DNA from: a virus
DNA length: 64,000 nucleotides
Reading direction: 5' to 3' (one strand)
IMG/VR virus record: IMGVR_UViG_3300045988_094874
Location: 1-64,000 of that record
Shown here: piece by piece, positions 13,362-62,098 of the stretch
Numbering within the stretch: the first letter of the stretch is position 1
How the letters are laid out: the number at the start of each line of letters is the position of its first letter
Program-made: the position numbers and the translations under genes
The notes under the pieces: model-generated
Seen by the model: only the letters and a program-made list of their open reading frames with translations
Databases searched by the model: none
What the model was told of the DNA's origin: nothing

Positions 13362-13735
13362 TACCGAAATTTCGAGCATGGCACAACAAATATAAAGAAA
13401 TGGGGAAGGTTAAACGGATACGATTTGATGATGACGGAAACATAAGCAATGTATTATTTAAAGGAAACCTGTTTGGAGTTAATGTAAAGATTAATGAAAT
13501 TGAACTTATGCAAGCAACAGGACTCAAAGACAAGAATGGTAAGGAAATTTTTGAGGGGGATATTCTTCATGGAAATGATGGAGAAGACTTCTGGGATGTT
13601 GTTAAATATGACAAAAATGATGCTGTCTGGATAAGAGAGTCTGTATATTGTTCTTCAATGCTTTATCTTTATGAGAATACTGAAACACCTAGTATTGTAG
13701 GTAACATATATGAAAATCCAGAAGTGCTTAGATAA
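13358..13735 (+). CDS. YopX-family phage protein
   Basis: N-terminal KFRAWH and central ATGLKDKNGKEIFEGDI typical of the YopX family. Confidence 0.55.
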   Translation: MIPKFRAWHNKYKEMGKVKRIRFDDDGNISNVLFKGNLFGVNVKINEIELMQATGLKDKNGKEIFEGDILHGNDGEDFWDVVKYDKNDAVWIRESVYCSSMLYLYENTETPSIVGNIYENPEVLR

Positions 13736-13748
13736 AAGGAGAAAGAAA

Positions 13749-15203
13749 ATGAAGAATAAAGTGAAATTTACAGCAGGAATGATTGTTTTAGCAGGGCTCT
13801 TAGTTGCCCCTAATGTATTGGCAAGTGAGGTTGCTAAAGAGGGTACTCAGATTAAGGTCACAGAGCCTGAAATCACTTACAGCTCAGAAGCGGCTGAAAC
13901 TTATGTCAACAAAGACTTGACATATCATACAGAAATCCCTGATGAGGTAGAGATTAATGAAGGTGATACACTCACTTACACTCTACCAGAACAGCTACAG
14001 TGGACAACTACTCAAGAATTTGATGTGACTAGTCCTGAGGGCAATGTAGTAGGACGTGCAGTTGCTTCTAATGAAACTCAGTCAGTTACCACAACGTTTA
14101 ACAACTACTTTAGTGAGCACCCTCTTGACAAGAGCTTTAACATGACACTCAAGACCATGTGGAAGAAAGAAGTAGTCACAGAGCGTGAAAAGTATGACCT
14201 CAATTTCAATGGCACTATTGTGAAACAGGCAGAGGTTAAGCCTCAGACTCCTGCAAACTCACAGGAGATTGTTGCCAAGTGGGGCTGGCAAGACAAAGAT
14301 GACCCTTCACTGGTTCAGTGGGGAGGACGAGTAAACTTTGTCAAACACCACCTCACAGATGTTAATGTATCTGATACATGGGACAGCAATAACGAGTACG
14401 TTGAAGGCTCTATGCGTATCTTTGAGCTCTCATCAGCAGAGCCTTGGGTAGGGATTAGAGAAATTCCTCTCTCAGAGGTTAATGTTCAGTTCTACAAGAA
14501 CGGGTTTAAGTTTAGCCTACCTGATGTGACTAACATTATCAGTGTTGAATACAAGACACGCTTGAAGAACAAGCTACAAAACCCTGTTAATGTATTGAGC
14601 TTTACAGCTATGGGTCAAGAGTATAGCTTTGAACGTGAAATCACAGTGGCTAATGCTACAGGTACAGCTAAGGGCAAGGTTCGACCTTTCACTTATGACG
14701 TACCACCAGCTCCTGTGTATGATATTCCAGAGTTTGAGGGTGGTGTAGTTCCTAATGACCCGCCTGTGCTGGATAAACCAGAGCTTAATATTGATGATAT
14801 TGAGCAAACACCACCAGCACCAGTCCATGAGCTACCAGAGTGGCAAGGAGGTACTACACCGCTAGACCCTCCTACAGTGGATAAGCCTGAATGGAATGGA
14901 GGCGTAGTGCCTAATGAACCCCCAGTATTAGACATTCCAGAGATTAACATTGATGATGTACCAGTTTTACCCCCTGCTCCTGTGCATGAGTTACCAGAAC
15001 TGGAAGTCCCTGATGTACCTACAGAAGACCCTAAGACACCTCCAACACAAGAGGAATTACCTCCTGCTAGCGCTGATGTTAAGTCACAGGATAAGAAGGT
15101 CTTGCCTAAGACAGGCTCAAAAGACAATATTATGTACTTAGTGATTGGAGCTATTGTAGGTCTGATTGCTTCTCTACTAATCCCATTTAGCAAGCGTAAA
15201 TAA
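13749..15203 (+). CDS. LPXTG cell-wall-anchored surface protein: signal peptide, about 280-aa adhesin-like domain, Pro-rich PPAPVxELPE repeats, LPKTG + hydrophobic segment + KRK tail
   Basis: start set at RBS-preceded ATG 13749 (track ORF starts 13710 inside yopX); sortase signal LPKTGSKDNIMYLVIGAIVGLIASLLIPFSKRK. Confidence 0.7.
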   Translation: MKNKVKFTAGMIVLAGLLVAPNVLASEVAKEGTQIKVTEPEITYSSEAAETYVNKDLTYHTEIPDEVEINEGDTLTYTLPEQLQWTTTQEFDVTSPEGNVVGRAVASNETQSVTTTFNNYFSEHPLDKSFNMTLKTMWKKEVVTEREKYDLNFNGTIVKQAEVKPQTPANSQEIVAKWGWQDKDDPSLVQWGGRVNFVKHHLTDVNVSDTWDSNNEYVEGSMRIFELSSAEPWVGIREIPLSEVNVQFYKNGFKFSLPDVTNIISVEYKTRLKNKLQNPVNVLSFTAMGQEYSFEREITVANATGTAKGKVRPFTYDVPPAPVYDIPEFEGGVVPNDPPVLDKPELNIDDIEQTPPAPVHELPEWQGGTTPLDPPTVDKPEWNGGVVPNEPPVLDIPEINIDDVPVLPPAPVHELPELEVPDVPTEDPKTPPTQEELPPASADVKSQDKKVLPKTGSKDNIMYLVIGAIVGLIASLLIPFSKRK

Positions 15204-15456: not shown

Positions 15457-18400
15457 ATGAAGAAAAGAGATTTAATGGTACTAGCCAAACGGCTATCATC
15501 TGTAGAGCTCTTTTCCCTTGATATTGAAACCACAGGACTTGATAGGTACAGGGATAAAATAGTCTCTGTGCAAATCAGCTATGACTTTAACGGTAAGGAA
15601 TATGACCATTTCATTTGGTGGGAGCAGTACACTAAAGAGGAATGGCAAGCCTTTCTGAAAGCCATAGCCAAACTGAATATGGTCACACACAATGGTAAGT
15701 TTGATATTCTGTTCCTATATGTTCACACAGGGGTATTCATGGAGCTTTACATGGATACACAGGTGCTGGCTCATGTATCAGGTGAAGTAGAGCTTGGACT
15801 AAAACCTCTTGTGGTAAAATACTTTGGTGATGATTATGACGTGAGCAAGGAAATCAAAGTCTCTGGTAAGCGAGACAGCCTGACTACACTCAAAGGATTT
15901 ATCACAAAGTATTTCACAGGAACTGAGCTTGTCATGGAACAGACTACTAAGGAAAATGCTGAGGCTTTCTTATCAGGGCTAAAGACCAAGGCACAGAAGA
16001 ACGCCTGTGAACTGATTGACAATGAGGACGGAACTTTTGACGTAACCCGAAAATGGGTACACAAAGACCGAACAGCCATGAATAAATTAGCTCAGCAGGT
16101 CTATGATGAGCTTGAAGGTGGTATACTTATCTCAGGAATGTCCGTAGAAGCCACTGACAGGCTCTGTAAGGCGTTTGAAAGTCTTGATAGTACAATCATA
16201 CTAGAGACGCTAAAAGATGTGACACAGGAGCTTGTAGAGGCTAATAACAAGAAGCTAGTGGTCTATGGAAAGAAGGACACACGATATACACTTAAGTTAG
16301 TGCCAATATTCAAGAAAATCATCAAGAAATACAAGATGATTAAGGTCTATAAGCATGAAATGAGAGCTTACAAAGCCTATTCTATCATTGAGAAACAGGG
16401 TATCTATATTGACCCTAATAGACACAAGGTGAGTGAACAGTTGAGAGCTGAGTACACAGAGTACCTTGAGGAGCTCAATGAGGTGGCTGAAATCAACTGG
16501 AACTCAACACAGCAGGTAGCTAAGGTCTTATTTGGTAAGAAGGGCGCTCCTGTGATTGTGGATGGAAAAGAGGTTGGAAAGTCCTTGGGACTGAAACCTG
16601 TGAAGAAGAGTGCCTCAGGAAATCCAAGCACAGATGATGAAACTCTTGTGGAGCTATCCGCTGTGAGTGAGGTTGCTAAGAACCTGAGAGAGTATAAGAG
16701 ACTGACTAAGCTGGATACATTTATCAAGTCATGGGACGAGATAGCTGTGGACGGTCAAATTCACCCTAGCTTTAATATCACAGCTAGGACAGGAAGGACA
16801 ACCTGCTCAAACCCTAATCTTCAGCAAGTCCCACAAAATAGTAATGTACGTGGAATTATCTATGCTAGACCGGGCTACAAGATTATTGAGTGCTTTAGTG
16901 GAGACACAGAGGTACTCACAGAGAAGGGATGGCAGAGATTTGATAGCCTTGATAAGGGAATTAAACTGGCACAATATGATTGTGAGAGTGAAGAGATTTC
17001 CTTTGAACAGCCTTTACGATATATCCACCAAGAGAATAGACCCACCTTCCACTATGAAGATAGGAATACTAGTGTATTTGCTACAGCCAATCATAATGTA
17101 CTGACTAGGTATACTAACCGAGTAACTAGGAAACATCCTTTTAAGGAGACTAACTTTAGCAGAGCCAACCAGTTCATAAATGCAGGCTTCTATACTACTA
17201 ATTACAAGTATTCTGATAAATACACAAGATTTCTAGCAATGTTTATTTCTGATGGTTATATGGACAACTATGGTAATATTTCTTTTGGTTTCAGAAAGCA
17301 GAGAAAGATTGATAGGTGTAAGCATGTTCTGGAAGAATTAGGTATTTCCTTTAAATTAAACCAGTATACAAGGAAAGGAAATGCTAAAGACACTATGTTC
17401 AGGATTGGTAAGGTCATGACACAGTTTGTGAATGAATACTCAGAGAGCTACAAGGTATTATCTACCAAAACAGCCTTTGAGCTTAACCCTGCTGTATACT
17501 TAGAAGAGGCTCAGTATTGGGATGGTACTCCTATAGTTAAGGGCAAGAGTGTGAGATTTGTATCTACACAGAAGAAAACACTTGAAGTCATGCAACTTAT
17601 GGGTGTATTCTGTGGGATTAAAATGGTTATTCACAGAGATAATCATAGGGATAAAGACTGTCATAAGTATGCTTATTATGTAAATTACAAACCAAAAGGA
17701 GATAGATTTACATGCATGAATGAGCAAGGGGTCGACTTCTCAAATCCTACTTACCAAGATGTTTACTGTATCACAATGCCACTTGGGACTTGTGTAATAA
17801 GACACAAGGGTAAGGTATCTATCCAATCCCAATGTGACCTGAGCCAAGCTGAGCTTCGAGTAGCCGCTGACTTTTCAGGAGATAAGAACATGATACATGC
17901 ATATCAGTCTGGAAGTGACTTGCATAGTAAGACTACAGAGATGATGTTTGGAAATCTTGAAGGATTAGACCATGATGAGCTTAAGAGAAAACGGACTCAA
18001 GCGAAGTCATGTTTCAGTGGAGATACTGAAATACTGACAGACAAAGGGTTTGTGCCATTTAATATGTATGATGGAGTAACTAGGGTAGCTCAGTATAATA
18101 TTGAGTCACAAGAAATCAGTTACACAGAACCGTTAGACTTTAGAATGATACCAAACCAGAAAATCTGTGTATTTGAGAATGAAAACACCTCACTAAAACT
18201 GACACCAAATCATGAGTGTATTATTCAAGTACAGAATACTAGAAAATACATGAAAAAGATTCCTTTTGAAGAGCTGGCAGGTCATGGGCAATCTAAGTAT
18301 GCTTGGGTAAATGCTGGTTATTACAACTATGATAAAAATAAGTTCATAGATGATAAATTGACAAGATTTGTAGCCTGCTTTGTTGCAGACGGAAGTTACA

Positions 18401-19503
18401 GTTCTTCAAAGAACGCTATCAGATTTGGGTTTACAAAGAAACGCAAGATTGATAGGTTTAGGTGGTTGCTAAAAGAGCTAGGAGTATCCTGTGAGCCTAA
18501 AATACAAGGTAAGTTAAAGGTAAGTTTCTTTACACTAAGTGACTTTAAATTACTAAACCTTGTAAAGAGATACTGTACCGAGGATAAAACTCTTCTTGAG
18601 CCTTCTCTTACTGAGCTAAACCCTCTTGTGTACCTTGAGGAAGCAGGTCATTGGGACGGTCATATAAATAAGTTTGGTCTAATACTAGTATCCTCAACAA
18701 ATAAGGAAACTTTAGATAAAATGCAGATAATGGCGATACAATCAGGTGTCCGCGCAAGACTGGCTCTAAGAGAGGAAGCTCATGATAATGTAAGTAATAC
18801 TTGGGAGTTGTCATATAATCTTGCTAAAAAGCCTCTGAGTAGGTTTGAAAGTAGGGATATTGACACACGAACTCACCACAAGACTAATTACAATGTCTAC
18901 TGTGTAACCGTTCCTGAACATAATATTGTTATACGCCATAATGGAAAAGTATCAATACAAGGAAACTGTAACTTCGGCTTTTTATATGGTATGCAAGCAA
19001 AATCGTTCGTGAATTACGCAAAAACCTATGGATTGAATTTATCACTCAAGGAAGCTGAGGAGTTCCGAAGTAAGTTCTTTGAAGCCTATCCGACTTTACT
19101 GGTATGGCACAGAAGGAACATTGACTTTGCTAGTAATAAAGGATATGTTGAAGCTCCGTCTGGCAGGAAACGTTTCTTGAGAGATATTTGGTCTGATGAT
19201 TGGGCTAAGAAGTCTTCTGCTGAAAGACAGTCACTTAACTCAGCTGTACAAGGCTTTGCTAGTGACTGTTGTATCTCAGCTCTAGCGGATATAGTTTTCT
19301 CAGATGAGCTAGACCATTCAAGAGCAAGAGTATTAGGCTCTGTGCATGACGCTATATTAGTAGAGGCTAAGGAAGACTATGCAGAAGAAGCCTCTCAGAT
19401 AGTAAAGAACCACATGGAGAACCCTTCCTTGTTTAAGCTACATAAGCTCTGTGTTCCAATGGTGGCTGATGTAGAAATCGGCAAGGGCTGGGGTATTCAC
19501 TAA
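15457..19503 (+). CDS. family A DNA polymerase with 3'-5' exonuclease domain, interrupted by two inteins (1348-aa precursor, about 715-aa mature)
   Basis: Exo I LDIETTGL; motif A reconstituted as KIIE/CDLSQAELR; motif AKS/CNFGFLYG reconstituted across intein 2. Confidence 0.8.
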   Translation: MKKRDLMVLAKRLSSVELFSLDIETTGLDRYRDKIVSVQISYDFNGKEYDHFIWWEQYTKEEWQAFLKAIAKLNMVTHNGKFDILFLYVHTGVFMELYMDTQVLAHVSGEVELGLKPLVVKYFGDDYDVSKEIKVSGKRDSLTTLKGFITKYFTGTELVMEQTTKENAEAFLSGLKTKAQKNACELIDNEDGTFDVTRKWVHKDRTAMNKLAQQVYDELEGGILISGMSVEATDRLCKAFESLDSTIILETLKDVTQELVEANNKKLVVYGKKDTRYTLKLVPIFKKIIKKYKMIKVYKHEMRAYKAYSIIEKQGIYIDPNRHKVSEQLRAEYTEYLEELNEVAEINWNSTQQVAKVLFGKKGAPVIVDGKEVGKSLGLKPVKKSASGNPSTDDETLVELSAVSEVAKNLREYKRLTKLDTFIKSWDEIAVDGQIHPSFNITARTGRTTCSNPNLQQVPQNSNVRGIIYARPGYKIIECFSGDTEVLTEKGWQRFDSLDKGIKLAQYDCESEEISFEQPLRYIHQENRPTFHYEDRNTSVFATANHNVLTRYTNRVTRKHPFKETNFSRANQFINAGFYTTNYKYSDKYTRFLAMFISDGYMDNYGNISFGFRKQRKIDRCKHVLEELGISFKLNQYTRKGNAKDTMFRIGKVMTQFVNEYSESYKVLSTKTAFELNPAVYLEEAQYWDGTPIVKGKSVRFVSTQKKTLEVMQLMGVFCGIKMVIHRDNHRDKDCHKYAYYVNYKPKGDRFTCMNEQGVDFSNPTYQDVYCITMPLGTCVIRHKGKVSIQSQCDLSQAELRVAADFSGDKNMIHAYQSGSDLHSKTTEMMFGNLEGLDHDELKRKRTQAKSCFSGDTEILTDKGFVPFNMYDGVTRVAQYNIESQEISYTEPLDFRMIPNQKICVFENENTSLKLTPNHECIIQVQNTRKYMKKIPFEELAGHGQSKYAWVNAGYYNYDKNKFIDDKLTRFVACFVADGSYSSSKNAIRFGFTKKRKIDRFRWLLKELGVSCEPKIQGKLKVSFFTLSDFKLLNLVKRYCTEDKTLLEPSLTELNPLVYLEEAGHWDGHINKFGLILVSSTNKETLDKMQIMAIQSGVRARLALREEAHDNVSNTWELSYNLAKKPLSRFESRDIDTRTHHKTNYNVYCVTVPEHNIVIRHNGKVSIQGNCNFGFLYGMQAKSFVNYAKTYGLNLSLKEAEEFRSKFFEAYPTLLVWHRRNIDFASNKGYVEAPSGRKRFLRDIWSDDWAKKSSAERQSLNSAVQGFASDCCISALADIVFSDELDHSRARVLGSVHDAILVEAKEDYAEEASQIVKNHMENPSLFKLHKLCVPMVADVEIGKGWGIH
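16891..17832 (+). mobile_element. LAGLIDADG intein 1 in PolA motif A (314 aa; Cys1 CFSGDTEVL; ends SIQSQ; +1 Cys)
   Basis: Hint N-terminal block, LAGLIDADG-like AMFISDGYMD, insertion immediately before the catalytic Asp of motif A. Confidence 0.7.
18010..18966 (+). mobile_element. LAGLIDADG intein 2 in PolA NFGxxYG motif (319 aa; Cys1 CFSGDTEIL; ends SIQGN; +1 Cys); paralogous to intein 1
   Basis: Hint block, ACFVADGSY LAGLIDADG motif, flanking AKS / CNFGFLYG extein. Confidence 0.7.
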
Positions 19504-61836: not shown

Positions 61837-62026
61837 AACAACCTCTTTCTATTCAAAACAAATCCCACAGTGGTAGCACTATGGGACTCTTCGGAGCAAC
61901 TTATGTATAGTATAACACTGTGTGTTCGGTAATTAGGTGATTTGCTCCTACGCCCATGTGACCTTTTACAATCACACAGGCTTAACGATACAGGAGATAT
62001 ATGAAATACATTGCCATAAAGGCAAA

Positions 62027-62098
62027 GAGCGTAGAGGGATTTGAACCCCCGATAGTGAGGTTGCGGCTCACGGTCTTAAACCACTTGACGATACGCTC
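62027..62098 (-). tRNA. tRNA-Cys (anticodon GCA); 7-bp acceptor stem GAGCGTA/TACGCTC, 3-bp D-stem, anticodon stem GTGAG/CTCAC, T-arm GGGGG-TTCAAAT-CCCTC; C at position 33; CCA not encoded
   Basis: cloverleaf folded by hand from the reverse complement. Confidence 0.6.

Follow-up and report, generated by a model that had tools for sequence, protein, structure and literature searches.

DNA polymerase I of Lactococcus phage KSY1 (NC_009817 gp096, "intein-containing DNA polymerase I") contains a single intein, inserted into polymerase motif B at the point AK[A/S]|C-NF. The KSY1 intein begins with CFSGDTEILT and ends with IVIRHNDKVSIQGN|CNF, and the motif A site of the same polymerase is empty and reads IE-C-DYSQLELR. 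Inteins that terminate with Gln, including those of Pyrococcus abyssi (Pab) and Methanoculleus marisnigri (Mma) Pol II and of the ribonucleotide reductase (RNR) of Chilo iridescent virus (CIV), follow the same splicing mechanism as other inteins, with the Gln cyclising, and are sometimes slow (PMC4031507). Here we describe the polA gene of an uncultured phage, located in a stretch of 64,000 nucleotides (positions 1 to 64,000 of IMG/VR record IMGVR_UViG_3300045988_094874, hereafter the window), in which the same host protein is interrupted twice. One intein is positioned at the motif B point used in KSY1 and has ends like those of the KSY1 intein (IVIRHN(D/G)KVSIQGN|C), whereas the other occupies motif A, in the same context as the empty site of KSY1.

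The polA open reading frame (ORF) encodes 1348 amino acids and combines a 3'-5' exonuclease (Pfam DNA_pol_A_exo1, E-value 6.6e-14) with a family A polymerase (DNA_pol_A, E-value 3.3e-68), the match to which is split over three stretches. An insert of 314 residues interrupts the protein at motif A, just upstream of the catalytic Asp, and one of 319 residues lies within motif B. Insert 1 starts with CFSGDTEVLT and ends with VIRHKGKVSIQSQ, encoded by the final codons TCC CAA, and insert 2 starts with CFSGDTEILT and ends with VIRHNGKVSIQGN; each is followed by Cys. Removal of both leaves a protein of 715 amino acids and 81.4 kDa with the junctions ...GYKIIE|CDLSQAELR... and ...RTQAKS|CNFGFLYG.... 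The ORF, the lengths, coordinates, and termini of the inserts, and the +1 Cys residues reported in an initial annotation of the window, which was made from the sequence alone, are exact to the base (Table 1). We estimate a probability of about 90% that both inserts are class 1 inteins with nested LAGLIDADG endonucleases, predicted to splice and to home, and that the allele formed when the second intein (2a) entered a gene already bearing the first (1a).

Table 1 Features of the polA gene and its two predicted inteins, in nucleotide positions of the window
Feature	Position	Strand	Description
polA precursor ORF	15457..19503	+	1348 aa; 3'-5' exonuclease and family A polymerase; two inteins inside
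N-extein, aa 1-478, ends ...ARPGYKIIE	15457..16890	+	colinear with intein-free P0007 and P0012
Intein 1 ("1a", motif A site), aa 479-792, 314 aa, 36.9 kDa	16891..17832	+	Cys1 ... Ser-Gln, then Cys+1
Intein 1 block A (CFSGDTEVLTEKG) with Cys1 nucleophile	16891..16929	+	C1, D5, T6, E7, L9, T10, and G13 invariant in family alignment
Intein 1 block B TxxH (T65-A-N-H68)	17083..17094	+	H68 invariant, T65 nearly invariant
Intein 1 LAGLIDADG motif 1 (FLAMFISDGY; acidic D121)	17230..17259	+	D121 and G122 invariant; Pfam LAGLIDADG_3 2.7e-6
Intein 1 LAGLIDADG motif 2 (YLEEAQYWDGT; acidic D211)	17497..17529	+	D211 invariant; W210 and G212 nearly invariant
Intein 1 blocks F and G (DVYCITMP...CVIRHKGKVSIQSQ)	17758..17832	+	Cys293 read as F:4, terminal Gln314; C293 and R304 invariant; three terminal beta strands in model
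Middle extein, 59 aa, Cys+1/motif A (CDLSQAELR) to ...KRKRTQAKS	17833..18009	+	gap-free against Taq Pol I LDYSQIELR...RRAAKT
Putative co-conversion tract 5' of intein 2	17929..18009	+	nt ~1531-1611 of spliced coding sequence; comparison with alleles with and without intein 2
Intein 2 ("2a", motif B site), aa 852-1170, 319 aa, 36.9 kDa	18010..18966	+	Cys1 ... Gly-Asn, then Cys+1
Intein 2 LAGLIDADG motif 1 (FVACFVADGS)	18367..18396	+	Pfam LAGLIDADG_3 1.2e-4
Intein 2 LAGLIDADG motif 2 (YLEEAGHWDGH)	18631..18663	+	family alignment
Intein 2 blocks F and G (NVYCVTVP...IVIRHNGKVSIQGN)	18892..18966	+	family alignment, codons
C-extein, from Cys+1 in motif B (CNFGFLYG) through motif C to stop	18967..19503	+	Taq Pol I alignment

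A search with the spliced sequence identified polymerases 90–95% identical to that of the window on contigs of 60–64 kb. Uninterrupted polymerases form four clusters; in the two that were read (P0007 and P0012) the protein is 90–94% identical to the spliced product and has 715 amino acids, exactly the predicted spliced length. Insert 1 is present alone in P0009, P0018, and P0019, in each of which intein 1a ends with SIQSQ|C, and insert 2 is present alone in P0013 and P0017. The allele P0011 contains a different intein at the motif A site, 44–45% identical to intein 1a, and P0015 and P0016 contain a different intein at the motif B site, 40% identical to intein 2. Once the inserts are removed, the extein coding sequence (CDS) is exactly 2148 nucleotides (nt) long in all compared alleles. 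The inserts are not chance features, because the same ones are present or absent among alleles that are otherwise 90–95% identical. A reading of the inserts as native domains of the polymerase was rejected, since intein-free alleles of 715 amino acids exist.

The spliced C-terminal half aligns with Taq Pol I without a gap at either junction: gykiie-c-dlsqaelrv corresponds to GWLLVA-L-DYSQIELRV at site 1, and rtqaks-c-nfgflygm to RRAAKT-I-NFGVLYGM at site 2. In standard Taq numbering, the +1 Cys residues take the places of Leu609, the neighbour of catalytic Asp610, and of Ile665, which belongs to the O-helix. The expectation of the initial annotation that excision restores the family A motifs is borne out by this alignment and by the intein-free alleles, and motifs A and B are both reconstituted at the extein junctions.

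The inserts belong to a family in which a profile search of 1.84 billion representatives identified 17,413 members at E ≤ 1e-3 and 2,983 at E ≤ 1e-30. In 263 phage records, relatives of insert 1 interrupt genes for RNR, RtcB, PhoH, thymidylate synthase, primase/helicase (DnaB-type), and polymerases; such a spread over many phage genes would be expected of a mobile module. The motif B site is also occupied by inteins in about 30 other cluster representatives. Terminal residues were counted in 185 full-length domains within the best 150 proteins. The first residue is Cys in 184 of them, the last is Asn in 172 and Gln in nine, and at the penultimate position 171 have Gly and one has His. The +1 residue is Cys in 113 of the domains, Ser in 51, and Thr in 14. 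The boundaries of the inteins are fixed by this comparison, because family members keep Cys1 yet may have Ser or Thr at +1. The intein ends, Gln|Cys in intein 1 and Asn|Cys in intein 2, suit a class 1 assignment.

Residues invariant in an alignment of 12 sequences include Cys1, the DTE.LT of block A, the His of block B, both LAGLIDADG Asp residues, K.RK, the Cys of the VYC strand, and an Arg. The Thr of block B is nearly invariant, and both inteins have T65-x-x-H68. The Asp-Gly pairs of the LAGLIDADG motifs are ..ISD121G and ..YWD211G in intein 1 and ..VADG and ..HWDG in intein 2. The initial annotation recognized a LAGLIDADG core in each insert, and both exceed the Pfam LAGLIDADG_3 gathering score of 22.5 bits, with 28.0 bits for insert 1 and 22.7 bits for insert 2.

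The block F Cys that is read as position F:4 is invariant in the family alignment, and class 3 inteins depend on a Cys at F:4 (PMC4031507). It could be argued from this that the inserts follow a non-class-1, class 3-like route with the block F Cys as the first nucleophile. We regard such a route as very improbable given the near-universal Cys1 of the family, the presence of Val or Cys in place of Trp B:12 and of Gln in place of Thr G:5, and the frequency of Cys at F:4 in ordinary inteins, where it ranks second among the residues at that position (PMC4031507). Class 3 inteins lack a Cys1 or Ser1 nucleophile; assignment to them was rejected, as only the Cys read as F:4 fits the definition of that class (PMC4031507). 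A bacterial intein-like (BIL) domain, which has no +1 nucleophile (PMC4031507), was also rejected: Cys+1 is present at both sites and lies within a catalytic motif at each.

The AlphaFold2 model of intein 1 has a mean predicted local distance difference test score of 92.5. The best matches of the model in the PDB, identified using Foldseek, are the TliVMA intein (E-value 5e-14), PI-SceI, the PhoVMA intein, and PI-PfuI (E-values to 1e-9). I-DmoI is matched with an E-value of 4e-7 and a TM-score normalised to the target of about 0.6. A sequence search of the PDB with intein 1, by contrast, returned a marginal match only, to a DnaX mini-intein (E-value 0.001). The model of intein 1 matches intein crystal structures and predicts a Hint fold, and the full-length identity of 37% between the inteins suggests the same fold for intein 2. 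The proposal of the initial annotation that two related LAGLIDADG inteins split motifs A and B is in agreement with the population alleles, the polymerase alignment, and the predicted fold.

Several observations weigh against this identification. The structural model was made for intein 1 alone, and Cys293 was assigned to F:4 from the pattern of the motif and the order of strands in the model rather than by residue-level structural superposition. The TIGR01445 model intein_Nterm gives 20.9 bits for intein 1 and 15.6 bits for intein 2, below its cut-off of 24.5, the TIGR01443 model intein_Cterm matches intein 2 only (16.1 bits, cut-off 15.6), and the Pfam Hint match has an E-value of 0.0035 and is under the gathering score. 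A comparison with hidden Markov models (HMMs) of the Hint domain, which the initial annotation had suggested, gave a mixed outcome, with TIGR01443 just above its cut-off for intein 2 and TIGR01445 and Pfam Hint below theirs. The curated intein HMMs barely detect the family, and therefore the precomputed Pfam domains show no Hint or intein family. In place of the penultimate His (G:6), which is common in inteins but not required, intein 1 has Ser and intein 2 has Gly. The maturation of intein 1 could be inefficient, by analogy with characterised inteins in some of which Gln cyclisation is slow (PMC4031507), and splicing and cleavage of these proteins are themselves inferred.

The initial annotation described the C-termini of both inserts as non-canonical. 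The description holds for the Gln of intein 1 but not for Gly-Asn, which is the norm of the family, as documented by the terminus counts; the terminal Gln of insert 1 is the sole departure. On the further claim that such termini often splice by modified mechanisms, experiments show that Gln-ending inteins do splice, and they use the standard route, in which the Gln cyclises (PMC4031507). Inteins that are functional without a His at G:6 also exist (PMC4031507). Because the other motif-A inteins end with Gly-Asn, the Gln of intein 1 is a derived state, and the change from GGC AAC to TCC CAA comprises four nucleotide changes. The terminal Gln is kept in all four intein 1a variants, which are 91–99% identical. 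In the 2b lineage, which occupies the motif B site in the same phage group, three variants (P0015, P0016, and P0129) end with Pro-Gln, with P0015 and P0016 being 68% identical.

The missing penultimate His, the terminal Gln of intein 1, and the weak scores of the curated intein models would also be compatible with one or both inserts being decayed, non-splicing relics, in which case the polA allele or the phage would be defective. However, all family-invariant residues are intact, the ratio of nonsynonymous to synonymous divergence (dN/dS) is 0.04–0.1, the Gln is conserved over diverged 1a and 2b variants, and the identical 1348-residue protein is present on 4–6 genome-length contigs from three data sources. 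Furthermore, with motifs A and B divided by the inserts, a polymerase that did not splice would be expected to be inactive. Decay is a very unlikely explanation. Intein 2a differs from its counterpart in the L006 allele with dS 0.875 and dN 0.038 (dN/dS 0.043), and the inteins are under purifying selection.

The replacement of Asn by Gln arose at least twice in polA inteins of one phage group, as Ser-Gln in 1a and as Pro-Gln in 2b, by several nucleotide changes each. All nine Gln endings in the 185-domain sample are found in family A polymerase contexts, of which six were identified by phmmer, two by Pfam, and one from the following motif only. The enrichment of Gln in PolA hosts has a Fisher p = 0.0125, which is based on automatic host labels and phylogenetically non-independent cases and is not relied on. 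Given this non-independence, the association of Gln with polymerases is a lead only. It is conceivable, but unlikely, that the change from Asn to Gln was adaptive rather than neutral and that the inteins are post-translational regulators of phage replication. If so, maturation of the replicative polymerase could become conditional through a final step that is slower or sensitive to redox state, with Cys1, the Cys of block F, and Cys+1 all being invariant.

We propose that polA is translated as a 1348-residue precursor with two class 1 inteins, each of which nests a monomeric, double-motif LAGLIDADG endonuclease. Splicing would start with an N-S acyl shift at Cys1 and continue with trans-thioesterification to Cys+1 of the next extein. 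The terminal residue would then cyclise, Gln314 of intein 1 to a glutarimide and Asn319 of intein 2 to a succinimide, and an S-N shift would complete the reaction. The expected products are a polymerase of 715 residues and 81.4 kDa, in which motif A (IIE-C-DLSQAELR) and motif B (AKS-C-NFGFLYG) are both intact, and two free inteins of ~37 kDa. In a mixed infection, the free inteins may cut intein-less polA at their own insertion sites, and repair by recombination would copy the intein together with some of the flanking extein into the cut allele. Indirect support for cleavage of the empty allele is provided by the presence/absence polymorphism, the co-conversion-like flank of intein 2, and the lower divergence of intein 1a than of its flanks.

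In a sliding comparison, the extein of the window is nearest to the allele with 1a only up to about nt 1530 of the spliced CDS. The ~80 nt 5' of site 2 are 85–88% identical to intein-2-bearing alleles, whereas the identity to intein-2-free alleles is 55–63%. On the 3' side of site 2, the extein is again of the intein-2-free type, and only the Cys+1 codon differs, being TGT instead of the ACA or GCA of intein-2-free alleles; the 27 nt after TGT are identical to the free allele L002. The mosaic looks like the signature of homing of intein 2a into an allele already bearing 1a, with a short co-conversion tract. In experiments, alleles with two inteins were mostly derived from alleles with one (PMC10643990), and the mosaic in the window fits this. 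Only 13 nt separate intein 1a from its copy in L005 (dS 0.05), whereas the flanking extein has a dS of 0.32; recent horizontal spread of 1a would explain its low divergence.

The 177-nt middle extein combines sequence of two allele types and the source is metagenomic, as would be the case if the assembly had joined co-occurring strains with single inteins into a chimera. However, the exact 1348-residue protein is encoded on 4–6 contigs of 50–200 kb from JGI/IMG, Logan, and ENA, and therefore the double-intein allele is not a one-off assembly chimera. The mosaic segments are 85–97% identical to the sampled single-intein alleles and include no exact copies of them. A chimera is extremely unlikely, and we favour the entry of intein 2a by homing.

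At the empty site 1 (nt 1434 of the spliced CDS; L002 and L005–L008), the +1 residue is Cys, Ala, Phe, or Trp and is followed by D(L/Y)SQ. At the empty site 2 (nt 1611 of the spliced CDS; the same alleles), it is Thr or Ala, followed by NFG. The intein-2 alleles have a divergent motif A region, xxE-[A/F/W]-DYSQLELRI. The divergent motif A and +1 variants may represent long co-conversion tracts or cleavage-resistant variants. The G+C content of the inteins, 0.369 for intein 1 and 0.363 for intein 2, is lower than the 0.42 of the extein, a difference consistent with foreign origin of the inteins or with a distinct history of mutation.

The inserts are 37% identical to each other over their full length (BLASTP E-value 3e-57), have the nearly identical ends CFSGDTE(V/I)LT and VIRH(K/N)GKVSIQ in common, and, in the BLAST ranking, the PolA inteins of the other site are their next-nearest relatives after inteins of the same site, those of motif B following those of motif A. 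On the strength of the resemblance, the initial annotation suggested homing or duplication within the gene. As a recent event, intragenic duplication or ectopic homing would have copied one polA intein into the second site within the phage lineage. However, each intein is nearer to same-site inteins elsewhere than to its neighbour. Intein 1a is 48% identical to the motif-A intein of P0139, 44–45% to that of P0011, and 43% to that of P0133, whereas intein 1 is 30–38% identical to motif-B inteins. Among the motif-B inteins, 2a is 67% identical to that of P0131 and shares about 40% identity with those of the 2b lineage. In addition, single-site alleles of both kinds exist, and the double allele is a recombination mosaic. 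The relatedness of the inteins thus stands, but a recent copying event within the lineage is most improbable. Comparison of the sequences makes an ancient jump between the motif A and motif B sites plausible. Polymerases often have two inteins of this family, as do 7 of 45 PolA representatives, and double occupancy in itself is not exceptional.

The window belongs to the genome of a tailed phage, with genes for primase/helicase, tape measure protein, portal, and large terminase. Megablast of the polA gene against 50,697 phage records returned no match, and no close cultured relative was found among them. The search of all six frames of the window with the intein-family HMM identified no third intein, and the window contains no long direct repeats. 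The only Rfam match in the window at the gathering threshold is a tRNA-Cys (anticodon GCA) at 62026-62098 on the minus strand. A gene just upstream of polA (13710-15203, plus strand) encodes a protein of 497 residues that has a signal peptide, contains Big_8 and Collagen_bind domains, and bears an LPKTG cell-wall anchor. It is positioned within the phage replication module, and an adhesin-like gene is odd cargo for a phage. Relatives of the LPKTG protein that are 60–74% identical are encoded in Streptococcus genomes (S. panodentis, S. sanguinis, and metagenome-assembled genomes), and because of them the host of the phage is probably Streptococcus. The genome search with the LPXTG protein found genes of Streptococcus but not the phage, and those loci are without polA.

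Other polymorphisms were observed in and beside polA. In relatives, a gene for a 295-residue DNA methylase is located between a 73-residue ORF and polA (L003/L004:4112-4999), whereas in the window the 73-residue ORF and polA abut (15455/15457), which indicates an insertion/deletion polymorphism of the methylase beside the intein-bearing gene. In P0020 and P0021, which comprise 299 and 8 member sequences, polA consists of two separate ORFs of 506 and 218 amino acids. A 223-nt insert is positioned between the codons for PNL and QQVP (L003:6343-6545, and L004); the site corresponds to ~16821/16822 of the window, which has no counterpart of the insert. The insert matches Rfam Intron_gpI end to end with 32.2 bits (E-value 1e-6), under the gathering score of 50, and is probably a group I intron without an ORF. 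The PNLQ motif is an intein site in other polymerases, and the inteins there end with Gly-Gln.

Nothing specific on a PolA motif-A intein or on a PolA intein of a Streptococcus phage was found in the literature searched, the InBase registry being outside that search. Mechanistically, the locus presents nothing new: inteins in replication enzymes, LAGLIDADG homing, the lack of a penultimate His, and a terminal Gln are all documented. The motif A site of intein 1 is less sampled than motif B. The locus provides a natural system, in which one uncultured phage group, probably of Streptococcus, has polA genes with none, either, or both of the inteins. Each site has two divergent, competing lineages, and other relatives probably have a group I intron at a further conserved motif. 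With this range of allele states, the dynamics of homing, the interference of neighbouring inteins with each other, and the switch from Asn to Gln can be tested on real sequence pairs. The 17,413 representatives constitute a very large phage intein family that is nearly invisible to curated intein HMMs, and such polymerases are therefore annotated without an intein call.

Judged from the sequence, intein 2 is allelic with the PolA intein of KSY1 in the motif-B group. The two inteins are 35% identical, and the polymerases of KSY1 and the window are 37% identical. The LAGLIDADG region of the KSY1 intein (L001:3001-3903) looks degenerate (LVAFTTRYG, with no acidic residue before Gly), whereas the window inteins keep their Asp-Gly pairs; the KSY1 endonuclease may be inactive. 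Intein 1 resembles the Gln-terminated Pab, Mma, and CIV inteins in its terminal Gln and +1 nucleophile, and Gln cyclisation, proposed here for intein 1, is also the presumed third step in those inteins (PMC4031507). They belong to other host proteins and organisms, and the likeness drawn here is one of terminus. Unlike in the Pab, Mma, and CIV inteins, the Gln of the window group is derived within a Gly-Asn family and is preceded by Ser or Pro.

The combination of Hint and double LAGLIDADG architecture is the same as in PI-SceI, TliVMA, and PI-PfuI, with TM-scores normalised to the query of 0.63–0.68, although their sequence identity to intein 1 is only 9–14%. The window inteins are smaller (314–319 residues, compared with about 360–454), appear to have less accessory structure, and differ in having Gly or Ser instead of His at G:6 and Cys instead of Asp at the position read as F:4. 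The haloarchaeal MCM-a/MCM-d and archaeal PolB systems likewise have two independent neighbouring inteins in a replication enzyme, and their populations likewise include empty, single, and double alleles, the double ones being formed from single ones (PMC10643990). The polA gene of the window differs from them in its host protein, in belonging to a phage and not an archaeon, and in that both of its inteins are of the same family. Unlike the haloarchaeal MCM and archaeal PolB systems, the phage group has two divergent, competing lineages at each site, 1a and 1b at motif A and 2a and 2b at motif B.

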